Notes: generated from the sequence alone by a model not told the origin. DNA of 64,000 nucleotides from an uncultured Actinomycetes bacterium (GCA_963762075.1 CAVXJC010000007.1:65920-129919), one strand, 5' to 3'; shown: positions 5,250 through 63,947, counted from the first letter of the stretch. Made by a program: numbers and translations.

Positions 5250-6212
5250 ATGACAGGCGCCGAACGCATGGAGCCGCTCGAGCGGCTGCTGAACCTCGTC
5301 GCCCTGCTGCTCGAGACGCCCACCCCGCTCACCTATGAGCAGATCCGTGACACGCTTCATGCGTACCGGGGCGACAACGTCGACAGCGCCAAGCGCATGT
5401 TCGAGCGCGACAAGGATCAGCTGCGAGAGTTCGGCATCCCGCTGCAGCTCGTCGAGACCGATGCATGGGGAACCGAACAGGGCTACATCATCCCGAAGGA
5501 CGAGTACTACCTTCCCGAGATCGCATTCACACCCGAGGAGCTCGGCGCGTTGCTCGTCGCCGTGCAGAGCGGCGGTGAGAACACCCGCGCCGAGCAAGCG
5601 GCACGCAAGCTGCTCTATGGCGCCGACGGGGGAGTGCTGGCGGGCCTCGCCGGCGGCCCCTTGGCATCGGGGTCAGACGCTCGGGGCACGCTGGTGATCG
5701 AGTGTGCAGATGCGGCCCAACGACGCCGCCGCGTGCGGTTCGGCTACCGCACGTCGCAAGGCCGGGCGGGGGAGCGGATGGTCGACGCCTTCGCGGTGGT
5801 CTTCCGGGGCGGGCATTGGTACCTCGTAGGGCACGACTTCGAGCGCGACGACGTGCGCGCCTTCAGACTCTCACGGTTCACGAGCGACCTCGATGATCTC
5901 GGAGACGGCCACGAGCCACCGGCAGGCTTTCGGGGTGCTGACCATGTGCAGGCAGGACCATGGGCCGCGACCCCGGAAGACCATGCCGAGATCGCGTTCT
6001 CGCCCGACGTCGCATGGTGGGCGGTCGGATCCTTCGCAGGCGCACGGGAATCACGGATCGACGACGATGGGTGGGTCGTTGCCGACGTTCCGATGGCGGA
6101 CCCGGGGCTGCTGGCATCGCTGGTGCTGCAGTTCGGTCCCGACGCGATCGTGCGTTCTCCCGAGGTGTTGCGTGACGAAGTTGTCGACCGCCTCGAGGTG
6201 CTGAGTGGCTGA
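5250..6212 (+). CDS. pafB: WYL-domain transcriptional regulator PafB
   Basis: N-terminal HTH plus WYL, PafBC type. It is the first of two paralogous tandem genes downstream of pafA. Confidence 0.85.
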   Translation: MTGAERMEPLERLLNLVALLLETPTPLTYEQIRDTLHAYRGDNVDSAKRMFERDKDQLREFGIPLQLVETDAWGTEQGYIIPKDEYYLPEIAFTPEELGALLVAVQSGGENTRAEQAARKLLYGADGGVLAGLAGGPLASGSDARGTLVIECADAAQRRRRVRFGYRTSQGRAGERMVDAFAVVFRGGHWYLVGHDFERDDVRAFRLSRFTSDLDDLGDGHEPPAGFRGADHVQAGPWAATPEDHAEIAFSPDVAWWAVGSFAGARESRIDDDGWVVADVPMADPGLLASLVLQFGPDAIVRSPEVLRDEVVDRLEVLSG

Positions 6213-7176
6213 GAAGATACGCGCGAGCCCTCCCAAGACCGCCGAGCGGCTCGGCCGCATGCTCGTGATCGTGCCGTACCTCGTGCAGCATCCCGGCTCG
6301 TCGCTCGGCGACGTCGCGTCGTTGTACGACGTGAAGCCCGAGCAGCTCCGACGCGACCTCGACCTGTTGTTCATGTCGGGCCTGCCTCCCTACGGGCCCG
6401 GGGATCTGATCGATGTCGATGTCGATGAAGACGACCTCATCTGGATCACGATGGCCGATCACTTCTCCCGCCCGCTGCGCCTCAGCCGTCAGGAAGCGCT
6501 GGCAATCACGCTGCGTTCGGCGGAGCTCCTCGCCGCTCCCGGGCTGCCGCAGGCCCCGGCCCTCGCGAGCGCCGTGCGCAAGCTACGTGATGCGATAGGC
6601 CCTGATACGGCCGGCGACGAGCACGCGATCGCCTCGGCGGAATCGGGGCGACCAGCCGAGCACCTGGAGACGCTTCGGCGCGCGGCGCTCGACCATGAGC
6701 GCATCACGATCGAGTATTTCGCGGGTTCGACCGGGGAGTGGTCGACGCGCGACATCGAGCCCGAGGAGGTCTTCTCGGCCATGGGCAACTGGTATGTCGC
6801 TGCGTGGGACCTCGGCGCACGAGACGAGCGGCTCTTCCGCGCCGACCGCATCCGGGCGGCTGCCCGGAGCGGCGTGCGTTTCGAACCCCGCGGCCTCGAG
6901 GGGGCGGGGCGCGCGCTCTACACGCCGACCGGTGACGAGGTCCGTGTGAGGCTGGCGTTGCGGCCAGGAGCGCGTTGGATCGCGGAGTACTACGCGACCG
7001 AGGACCTCATCGAGCGAGACGATGGAACCCTGGAGGTCACACTTCCTGCGGCCGAGCTCGCATGGGTCGCTCGGCTCATGCTCCGCGTCGGTCCCGACGC
7101 GCGGGCGATCTCGCCGCCCGAGGTGAGCGAGGCCGTGGTCGAGCTCGCTCGCGCGACCCTCGCGCTCTATCGCTGA
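6205..7176 (+). CDS. pafC: WYL-domain transcriptional regulator PafC
   Basis: Paralog of pafB with an ATGGCTGA overlap. It has the same HTH-WYL architecture. Confidence 0.85.
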   Translation: MAEKIRASPPKTAERLGRMLVIVPYLVQHPGSSLGDVASLYDVKPEQLRRDLDLLFMSGLPPYGPGDLIDVDVDEDDLIWITMADHFSRPLRLSRQEALAITLRSAELLAAPGLPQAPALASAVRKLRDAIGPDTAGDEHAIASAESGRPAEHLETLRRAALDHERITIEYFAGSTGEWSTRDIEPEEVFSAMGNWYVAAWDLGARDERLFRADRIRAAARSGVRFEPRGLEGAGRALYTPTGDEVRVRLALRPGARWIAEYYATEDLIERDDGTLEVTLPAAELAWVARLMLRVGPDARAISPPEVSEAVVELARATLALYR

Positions 7177-7312
7177 TCTTCAGCGCAGCCGAGGTCCGAA
7201 CGTCTGCGAGCCCGCCGTCGAGGTACGGCCTGGTGATGGTTCGAGTTGAGTAGACCCGTTCCTGCCGCGGGCTCTCAAGGCTCGCCTGAACGCGGCCGAT
7301 AGCACCCCTGAG

Positions 7313-7678
7313 ATGACAACGATCCGGACAACGTGCCCCAGGTGTGGCGAAGTGGACATGGGCCCCGAGGCGATCATGCTCTCGGTGCGCCAGAGCGGTC
7401 GTGAAGGCAGCTACCGTTTCACCTGCCCCAGCTGTGCCGACGACGTGGAGAAGCGTGCCGACCGCAAGATCGTGGCGCTCTTGGTCTCGGCGGGAGTGGA
7501 CATCGAGCAGTCAGAGAGCGACCAGTTGCTCTTCGACGACGAGGGTGCCGAGGATCTGCGGGGAGCGATGCCGCAGGGTCCGCGATTCTCGATCGACGAC
7601 GTGATCGAGTTCCACTACCTGCTGGAAGACGACCGCTACATCGAGGAGTTCGTGGCCTCGAGCGGCGGCAACGGCTGA
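7313..7678 (+). CDS. hypothetical zinc-ribbon protein
   Basis: 121-aa product with paired CxxC motifs (CPRCG ... CPSCAD) and an acidic C-terminus. No family assignment. Confidence 0.55.
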   Translation: MTTIRTTCPRCGEVDMGPEAIMLSVRQSGREGSYRFTCPSCADDVEKRADRKIVALLVSAGVDIEQSESDQLLFDDEGAEDLRGAMPQGPRFSIDDVIEFHYLLEDDRYIEEFVASSGGNG

Positions 7679-7742
7679 CGAGACAGGAAGCTCCACGATC
7701 GACGCGGTCTGCCGCGAGGGCAACGCCCTCGTGTAGCATCGC

Positions 7743-16343: not shown

Positions 16344-17735
16344 TCAGCTCCTGGGACGAACCTTCGTGCCGTCGGGCGTGTCCATGACCTCGAGGCCCAT
16401 GTCGGCGAGCTCGTCACGCAGTCGATCGCTCTCCGCGTAGTTCTTGCGAGCGCGTGCCGCGTCTCGCGCCGCAACCCTGGCCAGCATCTCCTCGCTCGGC
16501 GCCCAGCCGCTCGTGGCCTCTCGCTCGAGATCGAGCCCGAGCACCGAGTCCCACGATGCCAGCAGCGAATACTTCTCGCCGTCGCTCACGTCGTGCGAGC
16601 CGACGACCTCGTTCACGACCACCACGGTGGAGGGCATGTCGAGGTCCGAAGCGACCGCCTCACGGAAGCGCACGTCGAAGGCGCGGGCGGCCGGACCGAG
16701 CTCCTCGGCGCCCGGAGCCCACCCCGCCATGCGCCGGCGGAGCTGCTTGACACGGGCGTCGGCGGTGTCCATCGCATCCCACGTGAAGTCCATCTCCGAG
16801 CGGTAGCGAGTCTGGAACGTGAGCCACCGGAACGCGAGTGGATCAGACCCCCGCTCGACGAGATCGGGGACCCGGACCGTGTTGCCCGTGGACTTCGAGA
16901 TCTTCTGGCCCGATTGCCGCAGGTGGCCTCCGTGCACCCAGATCGAGACCACCCGATGCCCGACCGCCCCCTCGCTCTGAGCTATCTCGTCCTCGTGATG
17001 AGGGAACCGCAGATCGTTGCCCCCGGTGTGGATGTCGAACCGCTCGCCGAGGTACTTCATCGACATGGCCGAGCATTCGATGTGCCAGCCGGGAAAGCCG
17101 AGGCCCCACGGGGAGTCCCACTTCATCAGGCGTCCCGGGCCTGCCGACTTCCAGAGGGCGAAGTCGGCAGGAGTACGCTTGGCCGGGTCGCTCTCGAGGT
17201 CGCGATGACCCTCGCGGAGGTTGTCGAGGGTGTTGCCGCTCAGCGAGCCGTAACCGGGCAGTGACGACACGTCGAAATACACGCTTCCCGAGTCGACGAC
17301 GTATGCATGGCCGCGGTCGATCAGGGTCTGGGTGAGTTCGATCATCTCGGGGATGTGCTCGGTCGCCTTGGGATATCTGTCGGCGGGTCGGATGCCGACC
17401 GCAGCAGCGTCGGCGAAGACCGCGTCGGCGTACTTCTCGGCGATCTCCAGCGGGGAGGTGCCCTCGTCCTCGACCGCGAGCAGCATCTTGTCGACGGCCT
17501 GCGGCGACGCCTCGTCGGTCATGTGCCCGACGTCGGTGATGTTCATGATCTGCGTGACGGTGTGGCCCTCGAGCTCGAGACCGCGCCTGATCAGGTCGGC
17601 GAGCATGAAGGTGCGCATGTTGCCGAGGTGCGCGTAGCGGTAGACCGTTGGCCCGCAGGTATACATCGTGACGTGACCGTCGGCAGACGGTGTCACCTCG
17701 TCGAGCCCGCGCGTCAGCGTGTTGTACAGGCGCAT
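16344..17735 (-). CDS. cysS: cysteine--tRNA ligase
   Basis: Class I aaRS with [16 protein letters not shown] (HIGH-like) and KISKS motifs. [14 protein letters not shown] matches CysRS rather than the MshC paralog. 463 aa. Confidence 0.8.
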
Positions 17736-17765: not shown

Positions 17766-20183
17766 CTACGCAGAGTCGTCCGGGCGCGGAGGAGACTGCG
17801 GGTCGAGCATGACGCGTTGCCGGTCGGCCTGCCGGTTGCCCGGGGCCGAGGCGGCGACCTCGATCGGCGGAGGTGGCACCGGAACAGGGATGCGCGTCTC
17901 GACGCCGGCGTGTTCCCTGTGGGCGCGGAGCACCGCATCGTGGTAGCGCTCGATCATCTTCAGGAACATCGGGTCGTGATACGGCCTGCCGTCGACCGTG
18001 GGACCTTGCGTGCCCTCGATGATGGCTTCGACGTCGTCACCCGTGATGGTCTTCACGGTCTCCAAGGCGTGCGCGAGGGCGAGGATGTCCGAGCGGTGCT
18101 CGTCGAGGAGCTCCCAGGTCTTCTCGTAGAGCTCATTCAGCTTGTCCTCGACGCTCTGGCCGAAGACCGAGTCGAACAGCGCCCGGTCGCCGCCGGTCTC
18201 CATGGGCGTCGAGCCCAGAGGCGCGAGGGTGACGGACCGCGAAGCGATGCGGTCGCCCATCGCGTAGTAGGCCAGCGCCTGGCTGGTCATGCCTGTCGCG
18301 GCGCGCATGTCACCGCCGACCCCCATGGAATGATCTCCGTCGAAGAACATGCGCTCACCGGCCAGCGAAGCCAACGCGGTCATCACGTCGATCTCTCGTT
18401 CCGTGCGCCACTGCACGAACTGGTCCTCGGGCGGGATCGACGAGACGAACCCGCCGACGTCCCCACGGCGCTCGATCGTGGCCATGTCGATCACCGCATG
18501 CTTGCGCAACCTGTAGGCGACGACGGCGTGGCATGCCTCGTGCACCGCCACGGAGTGGCGCTCGCGCTCGATGTACTCGTGCTCATCGGGCAATCCGTGC
18601 TGCTTCAGCTGCTTTGCCTTCACGACGTCGCCATAGGTCACCATGTCTCGGTCGTCGCGGATCGCGATCACGAGGCCCTCGTTCACGATGTCCTTGATCG
18701 ACGCGCCCGAGAAGTACGGTGTGATCGTGGCGAGCTTGTCGAGCTCTGCTGTGTCGATCTCGTTCTTCACCTTCGCCAGGTAGTACTCGAAGGTCGCCCG
18801 CCGTCCGTCCTTCTGCGGGTAGCCAACCTTGTACTGGCGATCGACACGGCCGGGGCGCAGCATCGCCGGGTCGAGGGTGTTCGGCATGTTCGTCGCGAAG
18901 ATGTGCAGGATGCGGTACTTCGGCGGGGGCTTCGGCTTCATGCCGAGGAGCTTGCGGATCTTGTTCACGAGCCCCTTCGGCTTCGTGAGCCCCGACATCT
19001 CGGCGAGTAGCGCCTGCAGGGTGCCCATCCCGCCGCCACCCGCCATGCCGCCCATGATGACCCGCTCTTTGTACGGCTCTCCCGCCCCGGCCGACGATGA
19101 TCCGGCATGGAATGCCGCGTCGCGACCAGGCGCGGACAGGTAGGAGACCCCGTTGCAGGTGGGTGCGGTCGACCACGGCGAGACCGACGCACCCGCCCCA
19201 CCGGCGATCTGCTGACCGCGGCTTCCCAGTGAATCTGCCTCGTCGATGAACACGATCGCGCCGCCGTAGCGCATGGAGAGCTTGCGGAGCTTGCGGTACA
19301 AGGAGCGGACCTTGAGGATGCCGACTCCCATGAACATGTTGATGAACGCGCCCGCATCGACGTTCACGAACGGCTTCGCCGTCTCACCCGCCACGGCCTG
19401 GGCCATGAGTGTCTTGCCCGTCCCGGGAGGGCCCCAGAGCAGGATGCCCCCGGGCACGTAGCCGCCGCGAGACTCGATCGCCTCCGGGTCGTCAAGGAAC
19501 ACCAAGGTCTCTTTGAGTTGCCCGAGCGCCGCGTCCTGGCCCTTGACGTCATCGAACCGCGTCTCGATCTCGTCCGGCATGATCGTGTCGATGCCGCCTC
19601 GGGACAGGAACCAGAACAACCCGATGAACTGGAACATCACGAAGAAGAAGCCGAACGCGAGCTGCATGATGAATGGCAGGGCGACAACGAGTCGCGCCGG
19701 GGCCTCGATGATGCCCAACCACACGGGGTCCGAGTTGAAGATCCGACCCATCAACGTGCTCAGGACCGTGAGGAACAGGAAGAGCTTGAATGCGCGACCC
19801 GCCCGGAAGCGCGTGTAGTCGCTCATGCCTCCGAGCCGGCGATCCGCGCCACCGAAGACCGTCTTCTCCCAGAACCTGTAGTAGCCCTTCGAATGCTCCT
19901 CGATGAAGTAATGGGTCTGGCGCAGGAACTCCAACGCCATCAGCGCCAGCAACCACCAGTAGTCGTTGATCGCGATACGGATCGCATCGACGAACGGACC
20001 GTCGAGCGGTTTCACGGTGGTGGACCACACCACCGCGAGTCCCGCGAGCCAGAGGATGCTCAGCAGGACGAGGAGCTTGATGCGATCCCAGAACACGGCC
20101 GGCGCCCGCGTCTGCCGCTCCGATGCTCGCGGCCTCGACGGCCGGTCGGCCAAGATGTTGGAACCGTTCCCCTTGGTGCTCAC
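17766..20183 (-). CDS. FtsH-like membrane AAA+ ATPase / M41 zinc metalloprotease (divergent paralog)
   Basis: Walker A GPPGTGKT, Walker B IVFIDEAD and arginine finger RPGRVDR. The M41 motif is HEACHAV, followed by a downstream Asp ligand. About four N-terminal TM helices. The start is taken as the GTG at 20183, overlapping the upstream stop as GTGA; the raw ORF extends to 20243. Confidence 0.8.
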   Translation of the reverse strand: MSTKGNGSNILADRPSRPRASERQTRAPAVFWDRIKLLVLLSILWLAGLAVVWSTTVKPLDGPFVDAIRIAINDYWWLLALMALEFLRQTHYFIEEHSKGYYRFWEKTVFGGADRRLGGMSDYTRFRAGRAFKLFLFLTVLSTLMGRIFNSDPVWLGIIEAPARLVVALPFIMQLAFGFFFVMFQFIGLFWFLSRGGIDTIMPDEIETRFDDVKGQDAALGQLKETLVFLDDPEAIESRGGYVPGGILLWGPPGTGKTLMAQAVAGETAKPFVNVDAGAFINMFMGVGILKVRSLYRKLRKLSMRYGGAIVFIDEADSLGSRGQQIAGGAGASVSPWSTAPTCNGVSYLSAPGRDAAFHAGSSSAGAGEPYKERVIMGGMAGGGGMGTLQALLAEMSGLTKPKGLVNKIRKLLGMKPKPPPKYRILHIFATNMPNTLDPAMLRPGRVDRQYKVGYPQKDGRRATFEYYLAKVKNEIDTAELDKLATITPYFSGASIKDIVNEGLVIAIRDDRDMVTYGDVVKAKQLKQHGLPDEHEYIERERHSVAVHEACHAVVAYRLRKHAVIDMATIERRGDVGGFVSSIPPEDQFVQWRTEREIDVMTALASLAGERMFFDGDHSMGVGGDMRAATGMTSQALAYYAMGDRIASRSVTLAPLGSTPMETGGDRALFDSVFGQSVEDKLNELYEKTWELLDEHRSDILALAHALETVKTITGDDVEAIIEGTQGPTVDGRPYHDPMFLKMIERYHDAVLRAHREHAGVETRIPVPVPPPPIEVAASAPGNRQADRQRVMLDPQSPPRPDDSA

Positions 20184-20869
20184 GCGATCACCGCCCAAGA
20201 CTCGATCACGGATTCGATGTCGCCGCGATTGCGGCCGAAGCACTCCGCACTGCAGAGGACGGCCAACACGTACACCTTGTCAGACGCCGGATCCATGTAG
20301 GCCGTCTGCGAGATGTGCACGAAACGGTCGTCGAAGAACACGTCGGTTCCACCGGTCGACGTGTTGCCCTCCAGTGCCGATGCCCAGATCTGAGCTTCGA
20401 AATGAAGGCCGCGGAATCCGTCCTTCTCGATGCGGTCGTCGTACGCCAAGAGTTGAACCGCCTCACGCCCGACTTGATCCTGGATCTGGTCGATCGGGAC
20501 GATCAGGTTCCGCAGCGCCCCATAGTTGATGCCGTCGCGCTGCTCCGCCGTGAGGCGGAGCACGACCGCGATGCCCTGAGGGTAGTCGGAGAAGTAACCC
20601 CGTTGGTTCATCACGTTCCCCACGTCGGGCGAAGGGTCGGCGTCGATCCCGATCAACCACTCCACCGGATCGGGTGTGTTGACCGGCGGACCCGCTGTCT
20701 CGCCCTGTAACGTCGCTTCATCGAAGACGGTCCATTCGATCGGCACCTTGAACGCCGTCTTCGCCTCGGCGTTGCGAACGTACTCGTAGCTGGGCGAGCC
20801 GCAGGCCGCGAGGATCGTCGCAACCGCGAGTGCGGCCGCGCACGCCGGAACGCTACGGCGACGTGTCAT
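20180..20869 (-). CDS. putative lipoprotein (function unknown)
   Basis: Signal peptide plus lipobox (AAALAVATILAAC/GS). 229 aa. Its stop overlaps the FtsH-like gene's start. Confidence 0.65.
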   Translation of the reverse strand: MTRRRSVPACAAALAVATILAACGSPSYEYVRNAEAKTAFKVPIEWTVFDEATLQGETAGPPVNTPDPVEWLIGIDADPSPDVGNVMNQRGYFSDYPQGIAVVLRLTAEQRDGINYGALRNLIVPIDQIQDQVGREAVQLLAYDDRIEKDGFRGLHFEAQIWASALEGNTSTGGTDVFFDDRFVHISQTAYMDPASDKVYVLAVLCSAECFGRNRGDIESVIESWAVIA

Positions 20870-20952: not shown

Positions 20953-21396
20953 TCAGCCGCGGAGGGGGCGGCGTTCGAACGGTATCGACAGGGCGATCGT
21001 CGTCCTGGTGTCGACGTTGGCCTTCTCGCGGAGGCGTCGGATCAGGTCCTCCAGGTCGGCCGTCGTGCGCGTGCGCACCTTGAGCACGTAGTTCGTCTCC
21101 CCGGCAACGCTGAGACAGTCCTCGACCTCAGGGAACTCGGCGACCCGGTCGGGCAGATCGTCGGGCTGGCGAGGATCGAGGGGCGAGGCGGCGATCAGGG
21201 CCGTCACGAACAGTCCGAGCGCCTGCGGGTCGACGACCGCCGAGTAGCCGCGGATCACGCCCTGATGCTCGAGCTTGCGCACCCGGTCGTGCACCGCCGA
21301 GGCCGACAGACCGACGCGCGCCGCCACGTCGGCGTAGGTCGCTCGGGCATCGTCCTGCAGAGCGGCGACGATGTCGCGGTCTCTCTCATCGAGCAT
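20953..21396 (-). CDS. Lrp/AsnC family transcriptional regulator
   Basis: N-terminal HTH (RATYADVAARVGLSASAVHDRVRKLE) plus a C-terminal RAM/AsnC_trans_reg domain. 147 aa. Confidence 0.85.
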   Translation of the reverse strand: MLDERDRDIVAALQDDARATYADVAARVGLSASAVHDRVRKLEHQGVIRGYSAVVDPQALGLFVTALIAASPLDPRQPDDLPDRVAEFPEVEDCLSVAGETNYVLKVRTRTTADLEDLIRRLREKANVDTRTTIALSIPFERRPLRG

Positions 21397-21486: not shown

Positions 21487-22356
21487 GTGACCTCGAGACG
21501 CTGGTGCGGCCGATTGCGCCGACTCCGACGAGCGCGGTACAACCCATTCGAGATCGGCGCCGACCTCCTTCCGGCAGCCGGCAACGGCATGAGAGGAGGG
21601 CGGTTGCATCACATGCGCCCGCCGACATCGTTCGAGCGGGCCGACGGTCCCATCCGACTCGAGGTGGTCTCGAAGCCGGACGGGGGATCGCGCCTGCTCG
21701 CCCACTTGCCAGAGGGTGACCGACGGCGCTACGAGGCAGCCGTGGCCGCGGTGACGCCCAGGGTCGAACGGGCCTTGGGCGTGGGCGTCCTCGCGAACCG
21801 GGCCCGGACATCGGGCCCGCGACTCGAGCTCGAGCCCTGGAGGCTCGCCCGACGCAGGTACGAGCGAGGGCTGCGTGCCGCGACGAGCGGGCCGGGCCGC
21901 GCCGCCTTCGTCGGCGATGTGCGCGATTGCTACCGCTCGATCAGGCCCGCTACGGTCGACCGGGCACTCGTCGCGATGGGGGAGACACCCGACCGCATCG
22001 AACGCCTCACGACGGTTCTGAGGAGCTTCGAGGCCCGCGGGGGCAGGGGCCTGCCGATCGGACCCGCCCCCTCGGCGGTGCTGGCCAACGCGGTGCTCGC
22101 ACCGGTCGACGCTGCGCTCGTGGAATCCGGCGACGGCCCCGTCTATCGCTGGGTCGACGACGTGGTGGTGCTCACCGCCGACGTCGCTCGTGCTCGCCGA
22201 GTGGCACTCGCGTTCCGTCGCGCATTGAGCGTTCTCGGGCTGTCGGCCAACGAGTCGAAGTGCCGCATCACCGATGACCCGTTCGTGCTCGTGGCTGCCG
22301 CCTCGACGACGTCCATCTCCTGCACCCCGCGGCGTGGCATGATGCGCGCGCCGTGA
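21487..22356 (+). CDS. compact reverse transcriptase-like protein (retron/DGR-like RT domain, no thumb)
   Basis: RT motifs 1 (RLEVVSKPDGGSRLL), 2 (DRRRYEA), A (FVGDVRDCYRSI), B' (GLPIGPAPSAVLANAVL), C (YRWVDDVVVL) and E (LGLSANESKCRI). The start is uncertain: GTG at 21487, or ATG at 21613 with a GGAGG about 14 nt upstream. Its stop overlaps the downstream start as GTGA. Confidence 0.7.
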   Translation: MTSRRWCGRLRRLRRARYNPFEIGADLLPAAGNGMRGGRLHHMRPPTSFERADGPIRLEVVSKPDGGSRLLAHLPEGDRRRYEAAVAAVTPRVERALGVGVLANRARTSGPRLELEPWRLARRRYERGLRAATSGPGRAAFVGDVRDCYRSIRPATVDRALVAMGETPDRIERLTTVLRSFEARGGRGLPIGPAPSAVLANAVLAPVDAALVESGDGPVYRWVDDVVVLTADVARARRVALAFRRALSVLGLSANESKCRITDDPFVLVAAASTTSISCTPRRGMMRAP

Positions 22357-23862
22357 GGACCCTGTATCGAGCTGCGCTCGTGCGAACCCAGACCTACCCC
22401 GAGTCGGGGGAGTGGTTGCTCGTCGACGACCGGCACGTGCAACGAGTCGGCGTCGGCACACCGCCCGACGCCGACAGGGTGGTCGACCTTCCCGGGGCGA
22501 CGATCGTGCCTGGGTTCATCGACAGCCACGTGCATCTCACCGAGACCGGGCTGTCGCTCGCCCAGGGCGATGTCGAGGCCGCCCGCTCGGCCGGTGACCT
22601 CGTCGCGGTGGTGCGGGGCCGGGCAACCGAGGGCGATGGGCCGATCTTCCTGCTCGGTTACGACGAATCGGCATGGGAGCGGCCGGTCCTTCCGACGATC
22701 GACGAGCTCGACGACGTCAGCGCTCGACCTCTGGTTGTGCGCCGCGCCGACGGGCACATCGCGCTCGCCAACCGGGCGGCGCTCGAGGCCGCGCGTGTGC
22801 TCGACCTTCCAGGCGTGGAGCGCGACGGCGCGGGGCAGCCGACGGGACGTCTGACCCGCCAGGCGAACGCTGCGATCGGCCTGTGGGCCATGACGGTGCT
22901 CGACGATCTCGAGCGCCAGGATCTGCAGCTCCAGGCCGCGTCGCTCGCCGCTTCCAGAGGCATCACGGCGGTGCACGAGATGTCGATGCCGCACTGGAGC
23001 GGCGAGCGCGATCTGGAGGTCCTGCTCGCGCACCGTGAACGTCTGCCCATCGACGCTCTGCCGATCGTCGCTTCCACCGACCTCGGTGCCGCCATGCAGC
23101 GCGGGCTCTCGGCGATCGGAGGCGATCTTCCGGTCGACGGCTCGATCGGCGCGATGACGGCCTGGGTGAGCGAGCCCTACGTCGATGGCGCCGACGGATG
23201 TCGGCTACTGCGCCGACGACGAGCTGGCGGAGCTCTTCCACGGAGGACATGCGGCCGGGCTGCAGGTGGGGGTGCACGCGATCGGGGACCGGGCGATCGA
23301 TCAGGTCCTCTCGGTGTGGGAACGTGTCTACCACGCGCTCGATTCGCGCGAGCGCCGGCACTTCCGGGCCAGGCGGCATCGCATCGAGCATTTCGAGATG
23401 GTCTCGCCGCCGCAGCTGGAACGCGCCGCGATGCTCGGGCTCGCCGCGTCGGTACAACCGGCGTTCGACGCGACCTGGGGCATGCCGGGCGGCCTCTACG
23501 AGCAGCGACTGGGGGCGGAACGTGCCCGACGCATGAACCCGTTCCGCACGATGGTGGAACGCGGCATCGAGGTCGGGCTCGGTTCCGACGCTCCGATAAC
23601 AGCACTCGACCCGATGCGCGCGATCGATGCGGCCGAGCGCCACCACGATCGAGCGCAGCGGTTGTCGCGGCTCGAGGCGATCCGGCTCCACACGATCGGC
23701 TCGGCACGCATCGGTCACCAGGAGGGCAAGAAGGGCTCGCTCTCGCCGGGGATGCATGCGGACTTCGCAGCCTTCGGGTCCGATCCCTTCACCGAACCGT
23801 CGCTCGAGGGTCTGCGGCCGATGCTCACGGTCTCGCTGGGCCGGGAGGTCTTCGTCGGATGA
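22353..23862 (+). pseudogene. amidohydrolase family 3 (metal-dependent TIM-barrel hydrolase), frameshifted
   Basis: N-terminal part in frame 0 (PGFIDSHVHL ... EPYVDGADG). The C-terminal part continues in frame +1 from about 23200 (...GLQVGVHAIGD...HADFAAF...). One-nucleotide frame change near 23185-23210. Confidence 0.7.
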
Positions 23863-24202
23863 GCGCCTTGTCACTCTTTCTGTGCATCGACGGTTGACCT
23901 CTCAGCGTTCGCGGCAGTACCGTGCGGGCCGCGCCACCGCTTCGGCGGCGGCGCACGAGGGTCCGAGTGGCTGAGTAGAGAACGTGGCGCCCCGGCGTCG
24001 CGGCCCCAAAGGTCACTCGGGCCCTCACGTTCTCCCCCTCTGTCTTCGGAACGGGAATCTCTCGCGGTGTGCTCGCGTTCAATCGGTTCCGTGTGACGTT
24101 CGTGCGTCGGTCGATCACGCCGCCGCAACGTGGTTGCACGAGCGAGAAGGGGAAGTAGGATACGCGCGCATCGAAGGGGTCCGGCCCTTCGGAGGGAATG
24201 AG

Positions 24203-24574
24203 ATGAGCGACACGATGAGCGATATCGAAGAACCGAGCGAAGACGAGGCGCCGTCCGAAGAGCACGACGACGAGGAGCCCACCGAGGCCGATCTCGCCGA
24301 TGCAACCGTGCCTCCCGATCCAGCCACCGGGGGCGACGTCGAGTCGATCCAGGAGCTGCTCGTCAAGCAAGAGGCAGCCGACGAGGCCGACGCCGATGAA
24401 GAAGAGGAAGCGGTGATCGCTCTCACCAAGGAAGAGCGCCTGGCCGCCGACCCGGCGGAGTCCCGGGTCATCCCGATCCAAGAGACCGAGTTCGTCTGCA
24501 AGCGCTGCTTCCTGGTGAAACATCGCAGCCAGCTGGCCGACAAGAAGCGGACGCTGTGCCGCGACTGCGCCTAG
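24203..24574 (+). CDS. DUF4193-like acidic protein with C-terminal zinc-binding motif
   Basis: Acidic N-terminus and C-terminal EFVCKRCFLVKHRSQLAD...LCRDC. RBS ggaggga upstream of the ATG at 24203. Confidence 0.65.
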   Translation: MSDTMSDIEEPSEDEAPSEEHDDEEPTEADLADATVPPDPATGGDVESIQELLVKQEAADEADADEEEEAVIALTKEERLAADPAESRVIPIQETEFVCKRCFLVKHRSQLADKKRTLCRDCA

Positions 24575-26847
24575 AGGCGCGTCCCGCTCTTCCGCTCGCG
24601 CTCCTGATCGCAGCGACCTCGGGTCTGCTGTTGTCGGTGGCCTTCCCCCCGGCGGGTCTTTGGCCCGTTGCGTTCATCGCGGTGGTGCCCCTGATGTGGC
24701 TGCTCACCGCCACCGGACCTCGACGGGGGTTCGCACTGGGGCTCGTGTACGGGCTGGCGTTCCACGGAGCGACGCTGTACTGGATCCTTCGTTTCGGCGA
24801 ACTGGCGTGGGTTGCCGTGACCATCGTGTCCGCGCTGTGGCTCGGGGTGTTCGGCGCGCTCGTCCCGGCCTTCCTGCGCCGTGAGCGCCCCGTGGTGAAC
24901 GTGCTCGCGATCGCGTCGCTATGGACGGTGCTGGAATGGCTGAAGGGGATGTGGCCGCTCGGAGGATTCTCCTGGGGCACGATCGGGGTCTCCCAGGTCG
25001 ATAACCTCGCCACGGTCCGCCTCGGCACCGTCGCGGGCGTGTGGGGGGTGACGTTCGCCGTCGTCGCGGTCAACGCCGCGCTGGCTCAGTTCGCCGGCGG
25101 GGGAGGGGGGCGCGACGTCACGGTGGGCCGCGCCGGCGCCCTCGCCGGAGCCGCGACGCTCGCGATCGCCCCCTTGGCGTTGCCGTTCGCGAGCGCCGAC
25201 GGCCAGGCGATCGACATCGCGACGCTCCAGGTCGATGTGCGCGAAGCCGAGAACCAGACCACGGTGAGCGAGGATCTCCGCGTCGCGCAGCTGAACATCG
25301 CACAGCACCGGCTCTTGGACCAGGGGACTCCGCCCGATCTGGTCGTCTGGGGTGAGGGCGCCCTCGACCCGGCGGCGGCGGCCGATCCTGCGGTCCGTGA
25401 GCTCGTCGCTCGAGTCGTGTCCGAGCTCGGTGTGCCGACGATCGTCGGCGCGGTCATCGATGATGCAGACGGGGGCCAGCACACCTCGGTGTTGCAGCTC
25501 GACCCGACCGGCGCCGAGGTCGACCGCTACGACAAGACCCATCTCGTGCCCTTCGGCGAGTACATCCCGTTCCGCTCGCGGCTGGGTTGGATCGACGCGA
25601 TCGACCAGGTGCCCGTGGATCGAGAGCCCGGGCACGGCACCCGTCTCCTGACCAGCCCGGGCCTGCCGCCGTTCAGCACCCCGATCTGCTTCGAGAACTC
25701 CTTCCCCGCGATCACACGGTCGATCGTCGATCGGGGCGCCGGGTTCGTCGTCGTCCCCGTGAACAACGCCTCGTACGGCTTCACCGCCGCGAGCGCGCAG
25801 CACCTGCAGATGTCGCAGATGCGGGCGATCGAGACCGGGCGCTGGTACGTGAACGCCGCGATCTCGGGCATCAGCGCGTTCGTGGATCCGGCGGGACGCA
25901 TCGTCGCCTCGGTCCCGTTGTTCGAGACCGATATCCTTCGCCGCACCATCAGGGCCTCCGACGAACGGACGTGGTACGTGAGGCTGGGGGACTGGCTCCC
26001 CTGGCTCGCCCTCGGATCCCTGGCCGTCGTGTTCGCGGCACCCCCCCGCCGCACGCGCTCCCGTCCTGTCCCGCTTCCCCTCGGACCCGGTGAGCGTCGC
26101 ACCCTCGTGATCCTGCCCACCTACGAGGAACGCGCCACCGTGGAGCAGGTGTTGAGGGGCGTCCGCAAGGCTCCGCACGATGTCGACCTGCTCGTCGTGG
26201 ACGACTCGTCGCCCGACGGGACGGCCGCGGTCGTCCGCGACGTGATGTCGACCGAACCACATATCCGACTCGTTCAGCGGCCGCATCGCTCCGGGCTCGC
26301 GAGCGCCTACCTCGAAGGGTTCCTCCGGGCGCTCGACGAGGGTTACGACCTGATCGTCGAGATGGATTCGGACCTCTCACACGATCCCGCGGAGCTGCCG
26401 AGGCTGCTCGACGCGGCCGCCGCGGGCGCCGATCTCGCCGTCGGAAGCCGGTACGTACCGGGCGGCTCGGTGTCGAATTGGAGTCGGGCCCGCGTCGCCT
26501 TATCGCGAGCAGGCAACACCTATGCGCGCTTCATGCTCGGTCTCCCGCTGCATGACGCCACGAGCGGGTTCCGTGTCTACCGGCGGGCGCTCCTCGCCGA
26601 GCTCATGACCAACCGGATCGCCTCGGAGGGGTACGGTTTCCAGATCGAGTTGGTCATGCGATCCTGGCAGCTCGGAGCCACCTTGGTCGAGGTGCCGATC
26701 ACGTTCCGCGAACGTGAGCACGGGCACTCGAAGATCTCACGCCGAATCGTCGTCGAGGCCCTGTGGCTCGTGACCCGCTGGGGCGTGACCGACCGGCTCA
26801 AGGCCAGGAACTCGAGGGGAACGATGTTGGACCCCGCTTCCCCATAA
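24556..26847 (+). CDS. ppm1: bifunctional apolipoprotein N-acyltransferase (Lnt)-like / polyprenol-monophosphomannose synthase Ppm1
   Basis: N-terminal polytopic membrane plus CN-hydrolase domain (Lnt-like). The C-terminus is GT2 Ppm synthase (LVILPTYEERATV...VVDDSSPDGT...). The Lnt-Ppm fusion is as in M. tuberculosis Ppm1. Confidence 0.85.
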   Translation: MPRLRLEARPALPLALLIAATSGLLLSVAFPPAGLWPVAFIAVVPLMWLLTATGPRRGFALGLVYGLAFHGATLYWILRFGELAWVAVTIVSALWLGVFGALVPAFLRRERPVVNVLAIASLWTVLEWLKGMWPLGGFSWGTIGVSQVDNLATVRLGTVAGVWGVTFAVVAVNAALAQFAGGGGGRDVTVGRAGALAGAATLAIAPLALPFASADGQAIDIATLQVDVREAENQTTVSEDLRVAQLNIAQHRLLDQGTPPDLVVWGEGALDPAAAADPAVRELVARVVSELGVPTIVGAVIDDADGGQHTSVLQLDPTGAEVDRYDKTHLVPFGEYIPFRSRLGWIDAIDQVPVDREPGHGTRLLTSPGLPPFSTPICFENSFPAITRSIVDRGAGFVVVPVNNASYGFTAASAQHLQMSQMRAIETGRWYVNAAISGISAFVDPAGRIVASVPLFETDILRRTIRASDERTWYVRLGDWLPWLALGSLAVVFAAPPRRTRSRPVPLPLGPGERRTLVILPTYEERATVEQVLRGVRKAPHDVDLLVVDDSSPDGTAAVVRDVMSTEPHIRLVQRPHRSGLASAYLEGFLRALDEGYDLIVEMDSDLSHDPAELPRLLDAAAAGADLAVGSRYVPGGSVSNWSRARVALSRAGNTYARFMLGLPLHDATSGFRVYRRALLAELMTNRIASEGYGFQIELVMRSWQLGATLVEVPITFREREHGHSKISRRIVVEALWLVTRWGVTDRLKARNSRGTMLDPASP

Positions 26848-31821: not shown

Positions 31822-32397
31822 TCAGGCCGTGGCGAACCGAGGCGCGAGCAGGTGCGGATCGGCGGCGAGGGCATCGAGGTCGTGCACCTGCACGATGTCG
31901 GGGAGGTTGCGGTAGCGCTCCTGGAAGTCGAGCCCATAGCCGACCACGAAACGATCGGGGCAGTCGAAGCCCACGTAGCGCGGCGCCAACGGCACGATCC
32001 GGCGGACCGCCTTGTCGAGCAGTGTGCACACCTCCAGCGATGACGGGCCGCGGGCGCGAAGGACGCCGAGCAGGTACCGAAGGGTGAGCGCGGTGTCGAC
32101 GATGTCCTCGACCAGGAGCACGTCGCGGCCGGCGAGGTCGATGTCGACGTCCAGGAGGATGCGCACGCGTCCGAGAGATTCCTTCGCGTCGCCGTAGCGA
32201 CTGATCGCCATGAAATGTGGCTCGACGATCAGAGGCGTCGAGCGCATGAGATCGGCGAGGAACACCGCTCCGCCCTTGAGGACCGTGACGAGCACGGGTT
32301 CCCTCCCCGCATAGTCCTCGGCGATGGAGCGGCCGAGCTCCTGCACGCGGCGGCGGATGTCTTCGCGTCCGAACAGGACGCTCGCGACCTCCGTCAT
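31822..32397 (-). CDS. hpt: hypoxanthine phosphoribosyltransferase
   Basis: PRTase type I motif (VLLVEDIVDTALTL) and HPRT-like length. Confidence 0.85.
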   Translation of the reverse strand: MTEVASVLFGREDIRRRVQELGRSIAEDYAGREPVLVTVLKGGAVFLADLMRSTPLIVEPHFMAISRYGDAKESLGRVRILLDVDIDLAGRDVLLVEDIVDTALTLRYLLGVLRARGPSSLEVCTLLDKAVRRIVPLAPRYVGFDCPDRFVVGYGLDFQERYRNLPDIVQVHDLDALAADPHLLAPRFATA

Positions 32398-32430: not shown

Positions 32431-33726
32431 TCAGCCCACGACGCCTCCGAGGGCCTGTCCGATCGCGCGGCTGAGCGCACCGCCAGCGCGCTGCCACCAC
32501 GGATCGTCGCCGGCGGGCGGCGGGGGTGGCACCTGTGCCACGACCAGTGGGCTCGCACCCAGCGACAAGCCGGGAACCATCACCCTGAGTGTGCCGACCC
32601 GCTCTCCCATGGCGGGGGGGAACAGCGCACCGGCACGCACGAAGACCTCGTGGCGCACCGCGTCGAGGTGCGGCGTCGGCACGAGCGAGTCGATCGCTCG
32701 ACGGGCCTCGACCGCCACGGTCCCGCCGCGGATGGCGACCGTGCCGATCCCCTGGCCGGCTCGCACGAGCGTGCGTTCCTGGAAGCCCTCGAAACCATGA
32801 TCGAGCAAGGCGGCGGCCTCGGAGAACGGCTCGCCCCTGCTCCCGAGCACGACGGCGATCAAGCGACGGCCATCGCGCTCTGCCGTCGCGATCAAGCAGT
32901 AGCCGGCGACAGCCGTGAAGCCTGTCTTCACCCCGGTGGCTCCCGCGTAGAGCCAGAGCAGAGCGTTCCTGTTCTGGACCCGGCGCGGCCGTCCCTCGGG
33001 AGCGGAGATCTCTCGGAACCTCGACGCGACGATGCGGGCGAACCCGGGCACGGCGTAGGCAGTTCTCGCGAGAACGAGCAGATCGCGGGGGCTCGAACGT
33101 CCACGATCGTCGAGGCCGTTCGGCGAGAAGAACTCGGTGCGCCGCAGGCCGAGTGTGCGAGCACGCTCATTCATCAGATCGACGAACCGCTGTTGGGTGC
33201 CGGCGATGTCGACCGCGAGCGCCACCGCCGCGTCGTTGGCCGACTGCAGCATGAGGGCGTCGAGCAACTCTCTGACGGTCCGCCGTTCTCCGGCACGCAG
33301 CCCGAGGGTCGATGACGAACCGTAGTCGTCGTCGTCGAAGACCGCCTCGGCGGTGACCTCGACCACGTCGTGCAGATCTCTGCGCTCCAAGACGATCAGC
33401 GCGGTCATCACCTTGGTGAGGCTCGCGATGGGTCGCCGGATCTCGGGCGCCTTCGCGAACATGACGTGTCCGTCGTCGAGATCGGCCAGGATCGCCGCGG
33501 GAGCATCGAGCCGCGGAGCCGTGACGGCGTCGGATGGAGTCTCGAGCGCTTGCGGGAACGGTGATGGCGAGCCTCGAGGAGGGACAGGCGTCGGCGGCGG
33601 TCCGGAGCGCTCCGCCGATGAGACGCCCAGCAACCCGACCTGCAGGGCCAGGCAGGCGGCGACCGAAGCAGCGAGGAGCACGAACCTCCGGCTGCCGGTC
33701 GCCCGCGGGATCCGGCGCACGCTCAC
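32431..33726 (-). CDS. D-alanyl-D-alanine carboxypeptidase (peptidase S11)
   Basis: Signal/TM region, then SLTK (SxxK) and SAND (SxN) motifs. Confidence 0.8.
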   Translation of the reverse strand: MSVRRIPRATGSRRFVLLAASVAACLALQVGLLGVSSAERSGPPPTPVPPRGSPSPFPQALETPSDAVTAPRLDAPAAILADLDDGHVMFAKAPEIRRPIASLTKVMTALIVLERRDLHDVVEVTAEAVFDDDDYGSSSTLGLRAGERRTVRELLDALMLQSANDAAVALAVDIAGTQQRFVDLMNERARTLGLRRTEFFSPNGLDDRGRSSPRDLLVLARTAYAVPGFARIVASRFREISAPEGRPRRVQNRNALLWLYAGATGVKTGFTAVAGYCLIATAERDGRRLIAVVLGSRGEPFSEAAALLDHGFEGFQERTLVRAGQGIGTVAIRGGTVAVEARRAIDSLVPTPHLDAVRHEVFVRAGALFPPAMGERVGTLRVMVPGLSLGASPLVVAQVPPPPPAGDDPWWQRAGGALSRAIGQALGGVVG

Positions 33727-36169: not shown

Positions 36170-36243
36170 TCGGGACGGCGGGACTTGAACCCGCGACCCC
36201 CGGTCCCCCAGACCGGTGCGCTACCAGACTGCGCCACGTCCCG
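36170..36243 (-). tRNA. tRNA-Pro (anticodon GGG)
   Basis: Cloverleaf in the reverse complement: CGGGACG/TG/GCGCAGTCTGGTAGCGC/A/CCGGT-CTGGGGG-ACCGG/GGGTC/GCGGGTTCAAGTCCCGC/CGTCCCG. Anticodon loop CUGGGGG gives GGG. Confidence 0.85.
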
Positions 36244-60626: not shown

Positions 60627-60746
60627 GCTCCGGCGGCGACCTACTCTCCCACCAAGTCTCCCTGGCAGTACCATCGGCGCTGGAGGGCTTCACTTCCGGG
60701 TTCGGGATGGGACCGGGTGTTTCCCCTCCGCTGTGGCCACCGAAAC
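60627..60746 (-). rRNA. rrf: 5S ribosomal RNA
   Basis: The reverse complement reads …TTTCGGTGGCCACAGCGGAGGGGAAACACCCGGTCCCATCCCGAACCCGGAAGTGAAGCCCTCCAGCGCCGATGGTACTGCC…GGGAGAGTAGGTCGCCGCCGGAGC. About 120 nt. Confidence 0.85.
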
Positions 60747-60841
60747 GGTGGTTCCCGAAGGATCCTCGAAAGGACCGACGAGACAACTCTGAGGATGCGC
60801 CCCTCGAGCAGAGCTCGAAGAACTGCGATAGCGAGCGCGAG

Positions 60842-63947
<3,106 letters not shown>

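Follow-up and report, generated by a model that had tools for sequence, protein, structure and literature searches.

We found that the 64,000-nucleotide (nt) stretch analysed here, from an uncultured Actinomycetes bacterium (GCA_963762075.1, CAVXJC010000007.1:65920-129919; hereafter the window, 64 kb with a G+C content of about 68%), carries a lipoprotein gene and an FtsH-like AAA+/M41 zinc protease gene that together form a genuine two-gene operon, widespread in Actinomycetota and uncharacterised. Our preferred reading, to which we assign a probability of about 0.62, is that the operon encodes an accessory membrane AAA+ zinc protease and a dedicated extracytoplasmic lipoprotein partner, a pair that may act in substrate delivery or quality control. 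All genes of the locus lie on the minus strand, and the pair is laid out as follows.

20180-20869, minus strand: lipoprotein gene, 229 amino acids (aa), from the open reading frame (ORF) call
17766-20183, minus strand: gene for the FtsH-like AAA+/M41 zinc protease, 805 aa, from the ORF call and Pfam matches to AAA, AAA_lid_3 and Peptidase_M41
20180-20183, minus strand: GTGA overlap of the protease GTG start with the lipoprotein TGA stop, read from the sequence

The 3' end of the lipoprotein gene reads GCG GTG ATC GCG TGA, and the protease starts with GTG AGC ACC in the frame VSTKGNG.... The initial annotation, made from the sequence alone, had the coordinates and strand of both genes right, and the GTG/stop overlap that it described is present in the sequence and recurs in its 4-nt version in 44 of 68 related loci. 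We considered and rejected an 825-aa protease starting at an in-frame GTG at 20243; such a start is unlikely because the homologues are about 800 aa long and begin at the equivalent of the overlap codon, and because those 44 of 68 loci start at a codon overlapping the stop. Simple scans of 16.2-21.7 kb revealed no promoter-like or terminator-like sites.

The evidence for the operon comes from its conservation. Across the 71 loci with enough upstream sequence, which reach family members at about 50% identity and include cultured Pseudonocardia and Nonomuraea, a lipoprotein homologue lies immediately upstream of the protease on the same strand in 68, and thus the pairing claimed for the window, which depended on the partner being conserved, holds well beyond it. 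The stop and start codons overlap in 51 of these 68 loci, by 4 nt in 44 (ATGA in 24, GTGA in 15 and TTGA in 5) and by 1 nt in 7, and nearly all of the loci without an overlap have the two genes within 30 nt of each other. No third conserved neighbour was found, and since no other gene accompanies the pair in more than 10 of 85 loci, the conserved unit consists of exactly two genes.

Upon examining the wider gene order, we observe that it changes between lineages. The two genes that flank the pair in the window are the following.

16344-17735, minus strand: cysS, from a Pfam match to tRNA-synt_1e, beginning 30 nt after the TAG stop of the protease gene
20953-21396, minus strand: gene for an AsnC/Lrp-type regulator, from Pfam, 83 nt upstream of the lipoprotein gene

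The initial annotation was also correct in placing cysS on this strand, 30 nt beyond the protease gene. Three relatives, with the pair on contigs of 0.55-3.45 Mb, share the order Lnt/Ppm, DUF4193, amidohydrolase, reverse transcriptase-like, AsnC, lipoprotein, protease, cysS and M24 peptidase, with a 4-nt stop-start overlap between the lipoprotein and protease genes. In Pseudonocardia dioxanivorans CB1190 the pair sits between pyrE and a SpoU methylase gene, again with a 4-nt overlap. The gene cysS is found beside the pair in three loci of the window's lineage (L001-L003) and not in Pseudonocardia or Nonomuraea, and the AsnC/Lrp gene next to the pair is likewise confined to the window's lineage. 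We therefore place cysS outside the conserved unit, as its synteny is limited to that lineage.

The protease belongs to a large family. Homologue searches listed at least 120 clusters at 65-100% identity, all of about 800 aa, from metagenomes and metagenome-assembled genomes (MAGs) labelled 'Actinomycetota bacterium'. An exhaustive search of 1.84 billion representatives returned about 18 full-length protease clusters at 50% identity scoring above 500 bits, next below which came a sister group of 600-690 aa and then canonical FtsH. Seeding the search with a 52%-identical member revealed the family in many cultured Pseudonocardia species, and it is present in Nonomuraea as well. A contig profile scan with the full family alignment used generic P-loop patterns and, among the matches listed, gave mostly canonical FtsH together with three family loci; a metagenome scan with a family-specific sub-alignment added 80 further loci. 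Public records label the protease only as 'AAA family ATPase' or 'cell division protease FtsH', and we found no family model and nothing specific in the literature on this protease family or on a link between PsbP-like lipoproteins and FtsH. Some members are longer than the rest: P0186 (1140 aa) and P0432 (1176 aa, PF14528) carry an insertion of about 335 aa right after GPPGTGK, ending in ...THN just ahead of the T, which looks like an intein within the Walker A P-loop; in other members, about 1000 aa long, the extra length lies in C-terminal extensions.

Next to canonical FtsH, the family stands apart. The window protease shares 27-34% identity with the canonical FtsH of 76 species from many phyla, against 40-89% (median 51%) for those proteins among themselves. 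The NCBIfam equivalog model for FtsH, TIGR01241, matches the protease in two stretches with 271.1 bits, below its cut-off of 600. Judged by these sequence comparisons, the protease is a distinct family lying outside the whole canonical FtsH radiation.

When partitioning the two proteins into their parts, we obtain the following features.

19596-20183, minus strand: N-terminal membrane domain of the protease, residues 1-196, from AlphaFold2 (AF2) helices, hydropathy and Lys/Arg (K/R) counts
19053-19214, minus strand: insertion 1, residues 324-377 (54 aa), from the alignment with actinobacterial FtsH
18921-18986, minus strand: insertion 2, residues 400-421 (22 aa), TKPKGLVNKIRKLLGMKPKPPP, from the alignment with actinobacterial FtsH
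18021-18569, minus strand: M41 peptidase domain, residues 539-721, from Pfam, with HEACH at 18528-18542 and Asp625
20801-20812, minus strand: lipobox L-A-A-C of the lipoprotein, residues 20-23, read from the sequence and conserved in the family, with Cys23 as the predicted lipidation site

The catalytic core is complete at the level of motifs. Pfam matches AAA in two pieces (residues 247-323 and a later part), AAA_lid_3 at 480-516 and Peptidase_M41 (PF01434) at 539-721, the last with 74.6 bits against a cut-off of 29.9. We locate Walker A (GPPGTGKT) at residues 251-258, the pore-1 motif MFMG at 283-286, Walker B (FIDEAD) at 312-317, the sensor-1 ATN at 430-432, the arginine fingers RPGRVDR at 443-449 and HEACH at 548-552, with Asp625 further on; from the alignment to the structure 2dhr, we take D625 to be the third zinc ligand. 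Across a 63-sequence family alignment, Walker A, Walker B, the pore-1 MFxG and the sensor-1 TN are invariant, as are the arginines R443 and R446 of the second region of homology, the sensor-1 N432, H548, E549 and H552 of the zinc site, and D625. The closest PDB sequences are AFG3L2 (6nyy, E-value 9e-55) and bacterial FtsH, which align in two stretches covering about residues 200-330 and 425-725; between them lie about 95 residues in the protease against about 22 in FtsH. The protease thus retains all the residues required to hydrolyse ATP, to grip substrates and to act as a zinc protease, and its description as plausibly active gains support from this invariance.

The N-terminal 196 residues are of a different build from those of FtsH. 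They comprise a basic cytoplasmic tail, four helices, a basic cytoplasmic loop at 95-130 and an FWFLSRGG junction, and they are conserved across family representatives at 43-53% identity; no Pfam match, including FtsH_ext (PF06480), was found within residues 1-200 even at E-values up to 10. The AF2 model shows helices at 31-60, 64-74, 76-97, 99-118, 122-148, 154-167 and 169-196, with a predicted local distance difference test (pLDDT) score of 70-88, and we assign the transmembrane (TM) helices H1 to 35-57, H2 to 75-93, H3 to 131-149 and H4 to 165-193. The median 19-residue Kyte-Doolittle (KD) maximum over the family is 2.3 for H1, 1.2 for H2, 1.9 for H3 and 2.4 for H4, so that H1, H3 and H4 are clearly hydrophobic throughout; H2 bears the invariant residues E85, R88 and Q89. 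The number of Lys and Arg residues per sequence is 6.7 in the N-terminal tail, 1.4 in the loop 58-75, 8.8 in the loop 95-130 and 0.6 in the loop 149-166. A four-pass topology with the N-terminus inside and two outside loops of about 18 aa fits these data best, since the ATPase must be cytoplasmic and the K/R distribution agrees with it. A two-pass topology, with an outside domain of 108 aa between the TM helices, is less likely, as H3 is clearly hydrophobic and the loop 95-130 that would then lie outside carries about nine K/R. Family hydropathy, charge distribution and the modelled helices therefore all favour the roughly four TM helices that the initial annotation had read from the single sequence.

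Both ATPase-domain insertions that had been reported, at about 50 aa and about 25 aa, are present, and the alignment sets their lengths at 54 aa and 22 aa. In a multiple alignment with actinobacterial FtsH, insertion 1 follows the Walker B strand and precedes the GGGG-MGTLQALL helix, a site that in classic AAA proteins is the pore-loop-2 position. Its core is conserved as SPW..P.CNG.SYLS, with C343, N344 and G345 invariant, and its tail is variable and rich in Gly, Ser and Ala. Insertion 2 occupies the pre-sensor-1 position, between the GGGG...TLQALL helix and the sensor-1 strand, and is basic and proline-rich. It is almost invariant in the family and is common also to the sister family of 600-690 aa; together with the membrane domain, it is kept down to 43% identity within the family.

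Upon examining the 229-aa protein, we find the marks of a predicted bacterial lipoprotein. Its N-terminus, MTRRRSVPACAAALAVATILAAC, contains a signal peptide (MTRRRS...ATILAAC) that ends in the lipobox LAAC, and the domain that follows Cys23, about 205 aa long, includes a C206-x3-C210 pair. Over a 42-sequence lipoprotein alignment C23 is nearly invariant, and C206 and C210 are invariant. Of 69 homologues, 66 have a lipobox-like motif that a regular expression detects, and two of the remaining three show TSAC or TVAC by eye; the CxxxC motif is present in 66 of 69. No Pfam or NCBIfam model matches the lipoprotein and a profile search against PDB sequences gave nothing relevant; for PF01789 (PsbP) or related Pfam models, the window protein has no match and a Pseudonocardia homologue reaches an E-value of 0.15. 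The AF2 model of the lipoprotein has a pLDDT of 80.7, and Foldseek matches it with a probability of about 1.0 and E-values of 4e-7 to 4e-3 to cyanobacterial and plant PsbP, MTC28 and LpqN of M. tuberculosis, Mog1 and the DUF1795 chaperones EagT6 and SciW, the best match being CyanoP (2xb3, E-value 4e-7). There are 21 PDB matches at E-values of at most 1e-3, nearly all from the PsbP/Mog1/DUF1795-like fold group, with TM-scores of 0.26-0.51 (query-normalised) and 0.40-0.73 (target-normalised). As modelled, the fold is a PsbP/Mog1-type alpha-beta-alpha sandwich. The domain should hug the membrane surface, because its first strand begins about four residues past the lipidated Cys.

We then consider whether the protease accompanies a housekeeping FtsH. 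In actinobacterial loci of several classes, canonical ftsH has tilS and hpt upstream and folE or folP downstream, with the cluster whole or partial in the loci examined (L013, L018, L047, L058, L061 and L167), and a dacB-tilS-hpt-ftsH cluster is described as conserved in actinobacteria (PMC4255298). The window protease is not in the tilS-hpt-ftsH-folE/folP neighbourhood and sits between the lipoprotein gene and cysS. On an 11.85-Mb replicon of Nonomuraea gerenzanensis, the pair lies at 9.196 Mb and an intact tilS-hpt-ftsH-folE-folP cluster at 0.477 Mb, and because the two coexist there the family is a true paralog in that species. This replicon, NZ_LT559118.1, is filed as 'plasmid I' and is almost unannotated; it behaves as a chromosome, since it carries tilS-hpt-ftsH-folE-folP. 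The Pseudonocardia pair locus was considered as an orthologous ftsH site and rejected, the upstream Pribosyltran gene that resembled hpt being pyrE (TIGR00336). In the window itself, two members of the cluster are found.

31822-32397, minus strand: hpt, 11 kb from the pair, with no ftsH adjoining
32431-33726, minus strand: S11 DD-carboxypeptidase gene (dacB), next to hpt, with MerR-type genes nearby

Since hpt and the DD-carboxypeptidase gene stand here without tilS, ftsH, folE and folP, the ancestral dacB-tilS-hpt-ftsH cluster is broken in the window's lineage. The earlier claim of paralogy therefore holds for the family, which coexists with housekeeping ftsH in N. gerenzanensis, and is extended to the window organism itself as probable.

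Under the preferred reading of an accessory protease with its own lipoprotein partner, the protease would form an FtsH-like hexamer in which each protomer crosses the membrane four times, giving 24 TM helices. The hexamer would have almost no mass on the outer side, where each protomer would expose two loops of about 18 aa, and because the exposure is limited to these loops the protease would be without the FtsH periplasmic domain. The PsbP-fold lipoprotein, tethered a few residues from its lipid anchor, would sit on the outer face beside those loops as the outside-facing module, where it may regulate access or recognise envelope or membrane-protein substrates and hand them over. The pore-1 loop would pull substrates through a channel lined by the enlarged pore-2 loop into the M41 chamber, and the basic, Lys/Pro-rich insertion 2, on the membrane-facing side of the ring, may contact the inner leaflet or the anchor's basic cytoplasmic loop. 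The window organism would encode a housekeeping FtsH elsewhere. A more specific proposal, which we regard as possible and put forward tentatively, is a split FtsH, in which the lipoprotein would replace the lost FtsH periplasmic domain in trans, dock on the outside loops and gate proteolysis by an envelope signal, possibly through C-x3-C as a redox or folding sensor, with the pore-2 loop and insertion 2 relaying the signal to the ATPase ring. If true, a split FtsH would represent a new way to couple extracytoplasmic sensing to an AAA+ protease.

Several observations weigh against this reading. The AF2 model of the protease is weak in its ATPase part, with a mean pLDDT of 59, and because of this poor model the spatial roles of the insertions are taken from their alignment positions. 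H2 is weakly hydrophobic across the family, with its median KD of 1.2. Three loci, L092 (with AsnC upstream) and L097 and L141 (both with aspS upstream), have no upstream lipoprotein gene, which indicates that the protease gene can occur with no partner gene beside it. Finally, none of housekeeping ftsH, tilS, folE and folP is found in the 64-kb window.

The last of these points bears on whether this protease is the sole FtsH of the window organism, the housekeeping copy having been lost and its functions taken over by non-orthologous displacement. Such a history would account for the DD-carboxypeptidase-hpt remnant without its partners, and it is in keeping with the stable core-genome context of the pair in three distant relatives, one of them on a 1.8-Mb contig, and with the homologue searches, in which no canonical FtsH of the window's lineage occurs among the best 120 matches, all of them family members. 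However, all bacteria are described as having FtsH (PMC9020784), canonical FtsH occurs alongside the family in Nonomuraea, and in Pseudonocardia the family lies off the ftsH locus. The absence of tilS as well suggests that the cluster was relocated rather than lost, and little can be concluded from 64 kb of a genome that spans about 2-3 Mb; we thus judge displacement to be quite improbable. Somewhat less improbable, although still unlikely, is that the two genes are co-transcribed and their products form no complex, the lipoprotein being a substrate, a level-controlled target or a separate envelope protein that shares the promoter. The evidence for pairing is gene order and codon overlap, the mycobacterial PsbP-fold lipoproteins LpqN and MTC28 have roles unrelated to proteases according to the descriptions of the structure matches, and the three loci without a lipoprotein gene agree with such independence. 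Yet the pairing outlasts divergence to about 25% identity for the lipoprotein and about 50% for the protease while other neighbours change, translational coupling is kept in 51 of 68 loci, and no outside domain is left in the protease itself.

A non-proteolytic role, in which the protein would use ATP to translocate or unfold other proteins as the chloroplast Ycf2/FtsHi motor does, is suggested by the large ATPase insertions, which would suit protein movement across or out of the membrane and which, together with the expanded membrane domain, recall Ycf2, a distant relative of FtsH (PMC9020784). FtsHi and Ycf2 have lost the catalytic site, whereas all 63 sequences here keep HEXXH and the third zinc ligand, and we hold this role to be very improbable. 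A role of the pair in phage defence or conflict, with the AAA+ protease as the effector, is close to negligible in our estimate. It would draw on weak PADLOC matches of the protease to the IetA and TRIP13 ATPase models and on a reverse transcriptase-like gene 1.3 kb away, but those matches cover the generic AAA core alone and the lipoprotein has none; moreover, the pair holds a fixed core-genome position in each lineage among housekeeping neighbours such as cysS, pyrE and aspS, and a plasmid collection yielded a single family match, on the record that is a mislabelled chromosome.

The reverse transcriptase-like gene and the rest of the window show features of their own. The small ORF at 21487-22356 on the plus strand carries the motif YRWVDDVVVL and matches the PADLOC RT_UG23, UG33 and Drt8 core models with E-values between 1e-21 and 1e-18. 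A GTGA overlap joins its end to an Amidohydro_3 gene at 22353-23897 on the plus strand. The same reverse transcriptase-amidohydrolase pair (reverse transcriptase of 234-248 aa, RVT_1) occupies the same position in three distant relatives, for which reason the reverse transcriptase looks like a fixed chromosomal gene and not a mobile one. The amidohydrolase gene is frameshifted at about 23170-23200, where the 502-aa protein of a relative aligns in frame 3 to 23201 and in frame 1 from 23200, and this reflects either a pseudogene or an assembly error. The ORF at 24400-26847 on the plus strand corresponds, by position alone, to the fusion of Lnt (apolipoprotein N-acyltransferase) with a glycosyltransferase that is encoded within a few kb of the pair in relatives, a fusion that resembles mycobacterial Ppm1. 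Complete 23S and 5S rRNA genes lie at the right end of the window (60628-63947, minus strand), and there is one tRNA gene at 36170-36243 on the minus strand.

Overall, the analysis delimits a second, structurally distinct FtsH-type machine that is stably inherited in several Actinomycetota lineages, with an unusual combination of a new four-helix anchor, two insertions at mechanistically sensitive sites of the ATPase and an operon-encoded lipoprotein. Because cultured hosts exist in Pseudonocardia and Nonomuraea, the substrates and the role of the lipoprotein are directly testable, and such tests could show how the state of the envelope is linked to regulated proteolysis in actinobacteria.

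In comparison with housekeeping FtsH (TIGR01241; 2dhr, 2ce7, 7vhp), the protease has the same order of anchor, classic-clade AAA domain, lid and M41 domain, and the same Walker A and B, pore-1 aromatic residue, sensor-1, arginine fingers, HEXXH and Asp. Housekeeping FtsH differs in having two TM helices that flank a periplasmic domain (FtsH_ext), in place of which the protease here has four helices and loops of about 18 aa. Nor does housekeeping FtsH have the insertions of 54 aa and 22 aa that the protease carries between Walker B and sensor-1. The protease departs from housekeeping FtsH in four features, namely the equivalog score, the periplasmic domain, the identity range and the synteny. 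The pore-loop 2 of AFG3L2 is also enlarged relative to other FtsH-type proteases; unlike the protease here, AFG3L2 (6nyy) is without the pre-sensor-1 insertion and the four-helix anchor, and the 54-aa insertion of the protease is far longer than the enlarged loop of AFG3L2. FtsH, the universal membrane AAA+ protease, is described as present in one copy in most bacteria and as having one or two TM helices (PMC9020784). Second copies, which are annotated as FtsH, have been described, among them FtsH2 of P. aeruginosa clone C, which is defined by its membrane-cytoplasmic linker (PMC10850787), and FtsH3 of S. lividans, which bears the FtsH InterPro signature and provides an actinomycete precedent for an auxiliary second FtsH (PMC5994538). 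The sources on FtsH2 and FtsH3 report no lipoprotein partner and no such insertions, and by these descriptions the protease here is set apart from both. The sister family of 600-690 aa (L007; P0225, P0230 and P0241) shares the pre-sensor-1 insertion, has a shorter insertion 1 and is 37-38% identical; its N-terminus differs in being short, with hydrophobic helices numbering about two, and L007 has no upstream lipoprotein gene. This family occurs in Actinomycetes MAGs, its locus in L007 being at 5707-7728 on the plus strand.

The lipoprotein resembles PsbP/CyanoP, Mog1, LpqN, MTC28 and the Eag chaperones in its modelled fold, with no detectable sequence similarity, and the C-x3-C pair is specific to the present family. 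CyanoP and LpqN are also lipoproteins. None of PsbP/CyanoP, Mog1, LpqN, MTC28 and the DUF1795 Eag proteins is known to be encoded with an AAA protease. In FtsH-HflK/HflC of E. coli and in the m-AAA protease with prohibitins, access to a membrane AAA protease is controlled by a dedicated protein across the membrane (PMC9020784), to which the putative lipoprotein partner would be analogous. The Pfam scan of the lipoprotein found no domain at all, the SPFH/Band-7 domain included; HflK/HflC and the prohibitins form an SPFH/Band-7 cage, whereas the partner here would be a small protein with a PsbP fold and a lipid anchor, whose gene shares an operon, and overlapping codons, with that of the protease.

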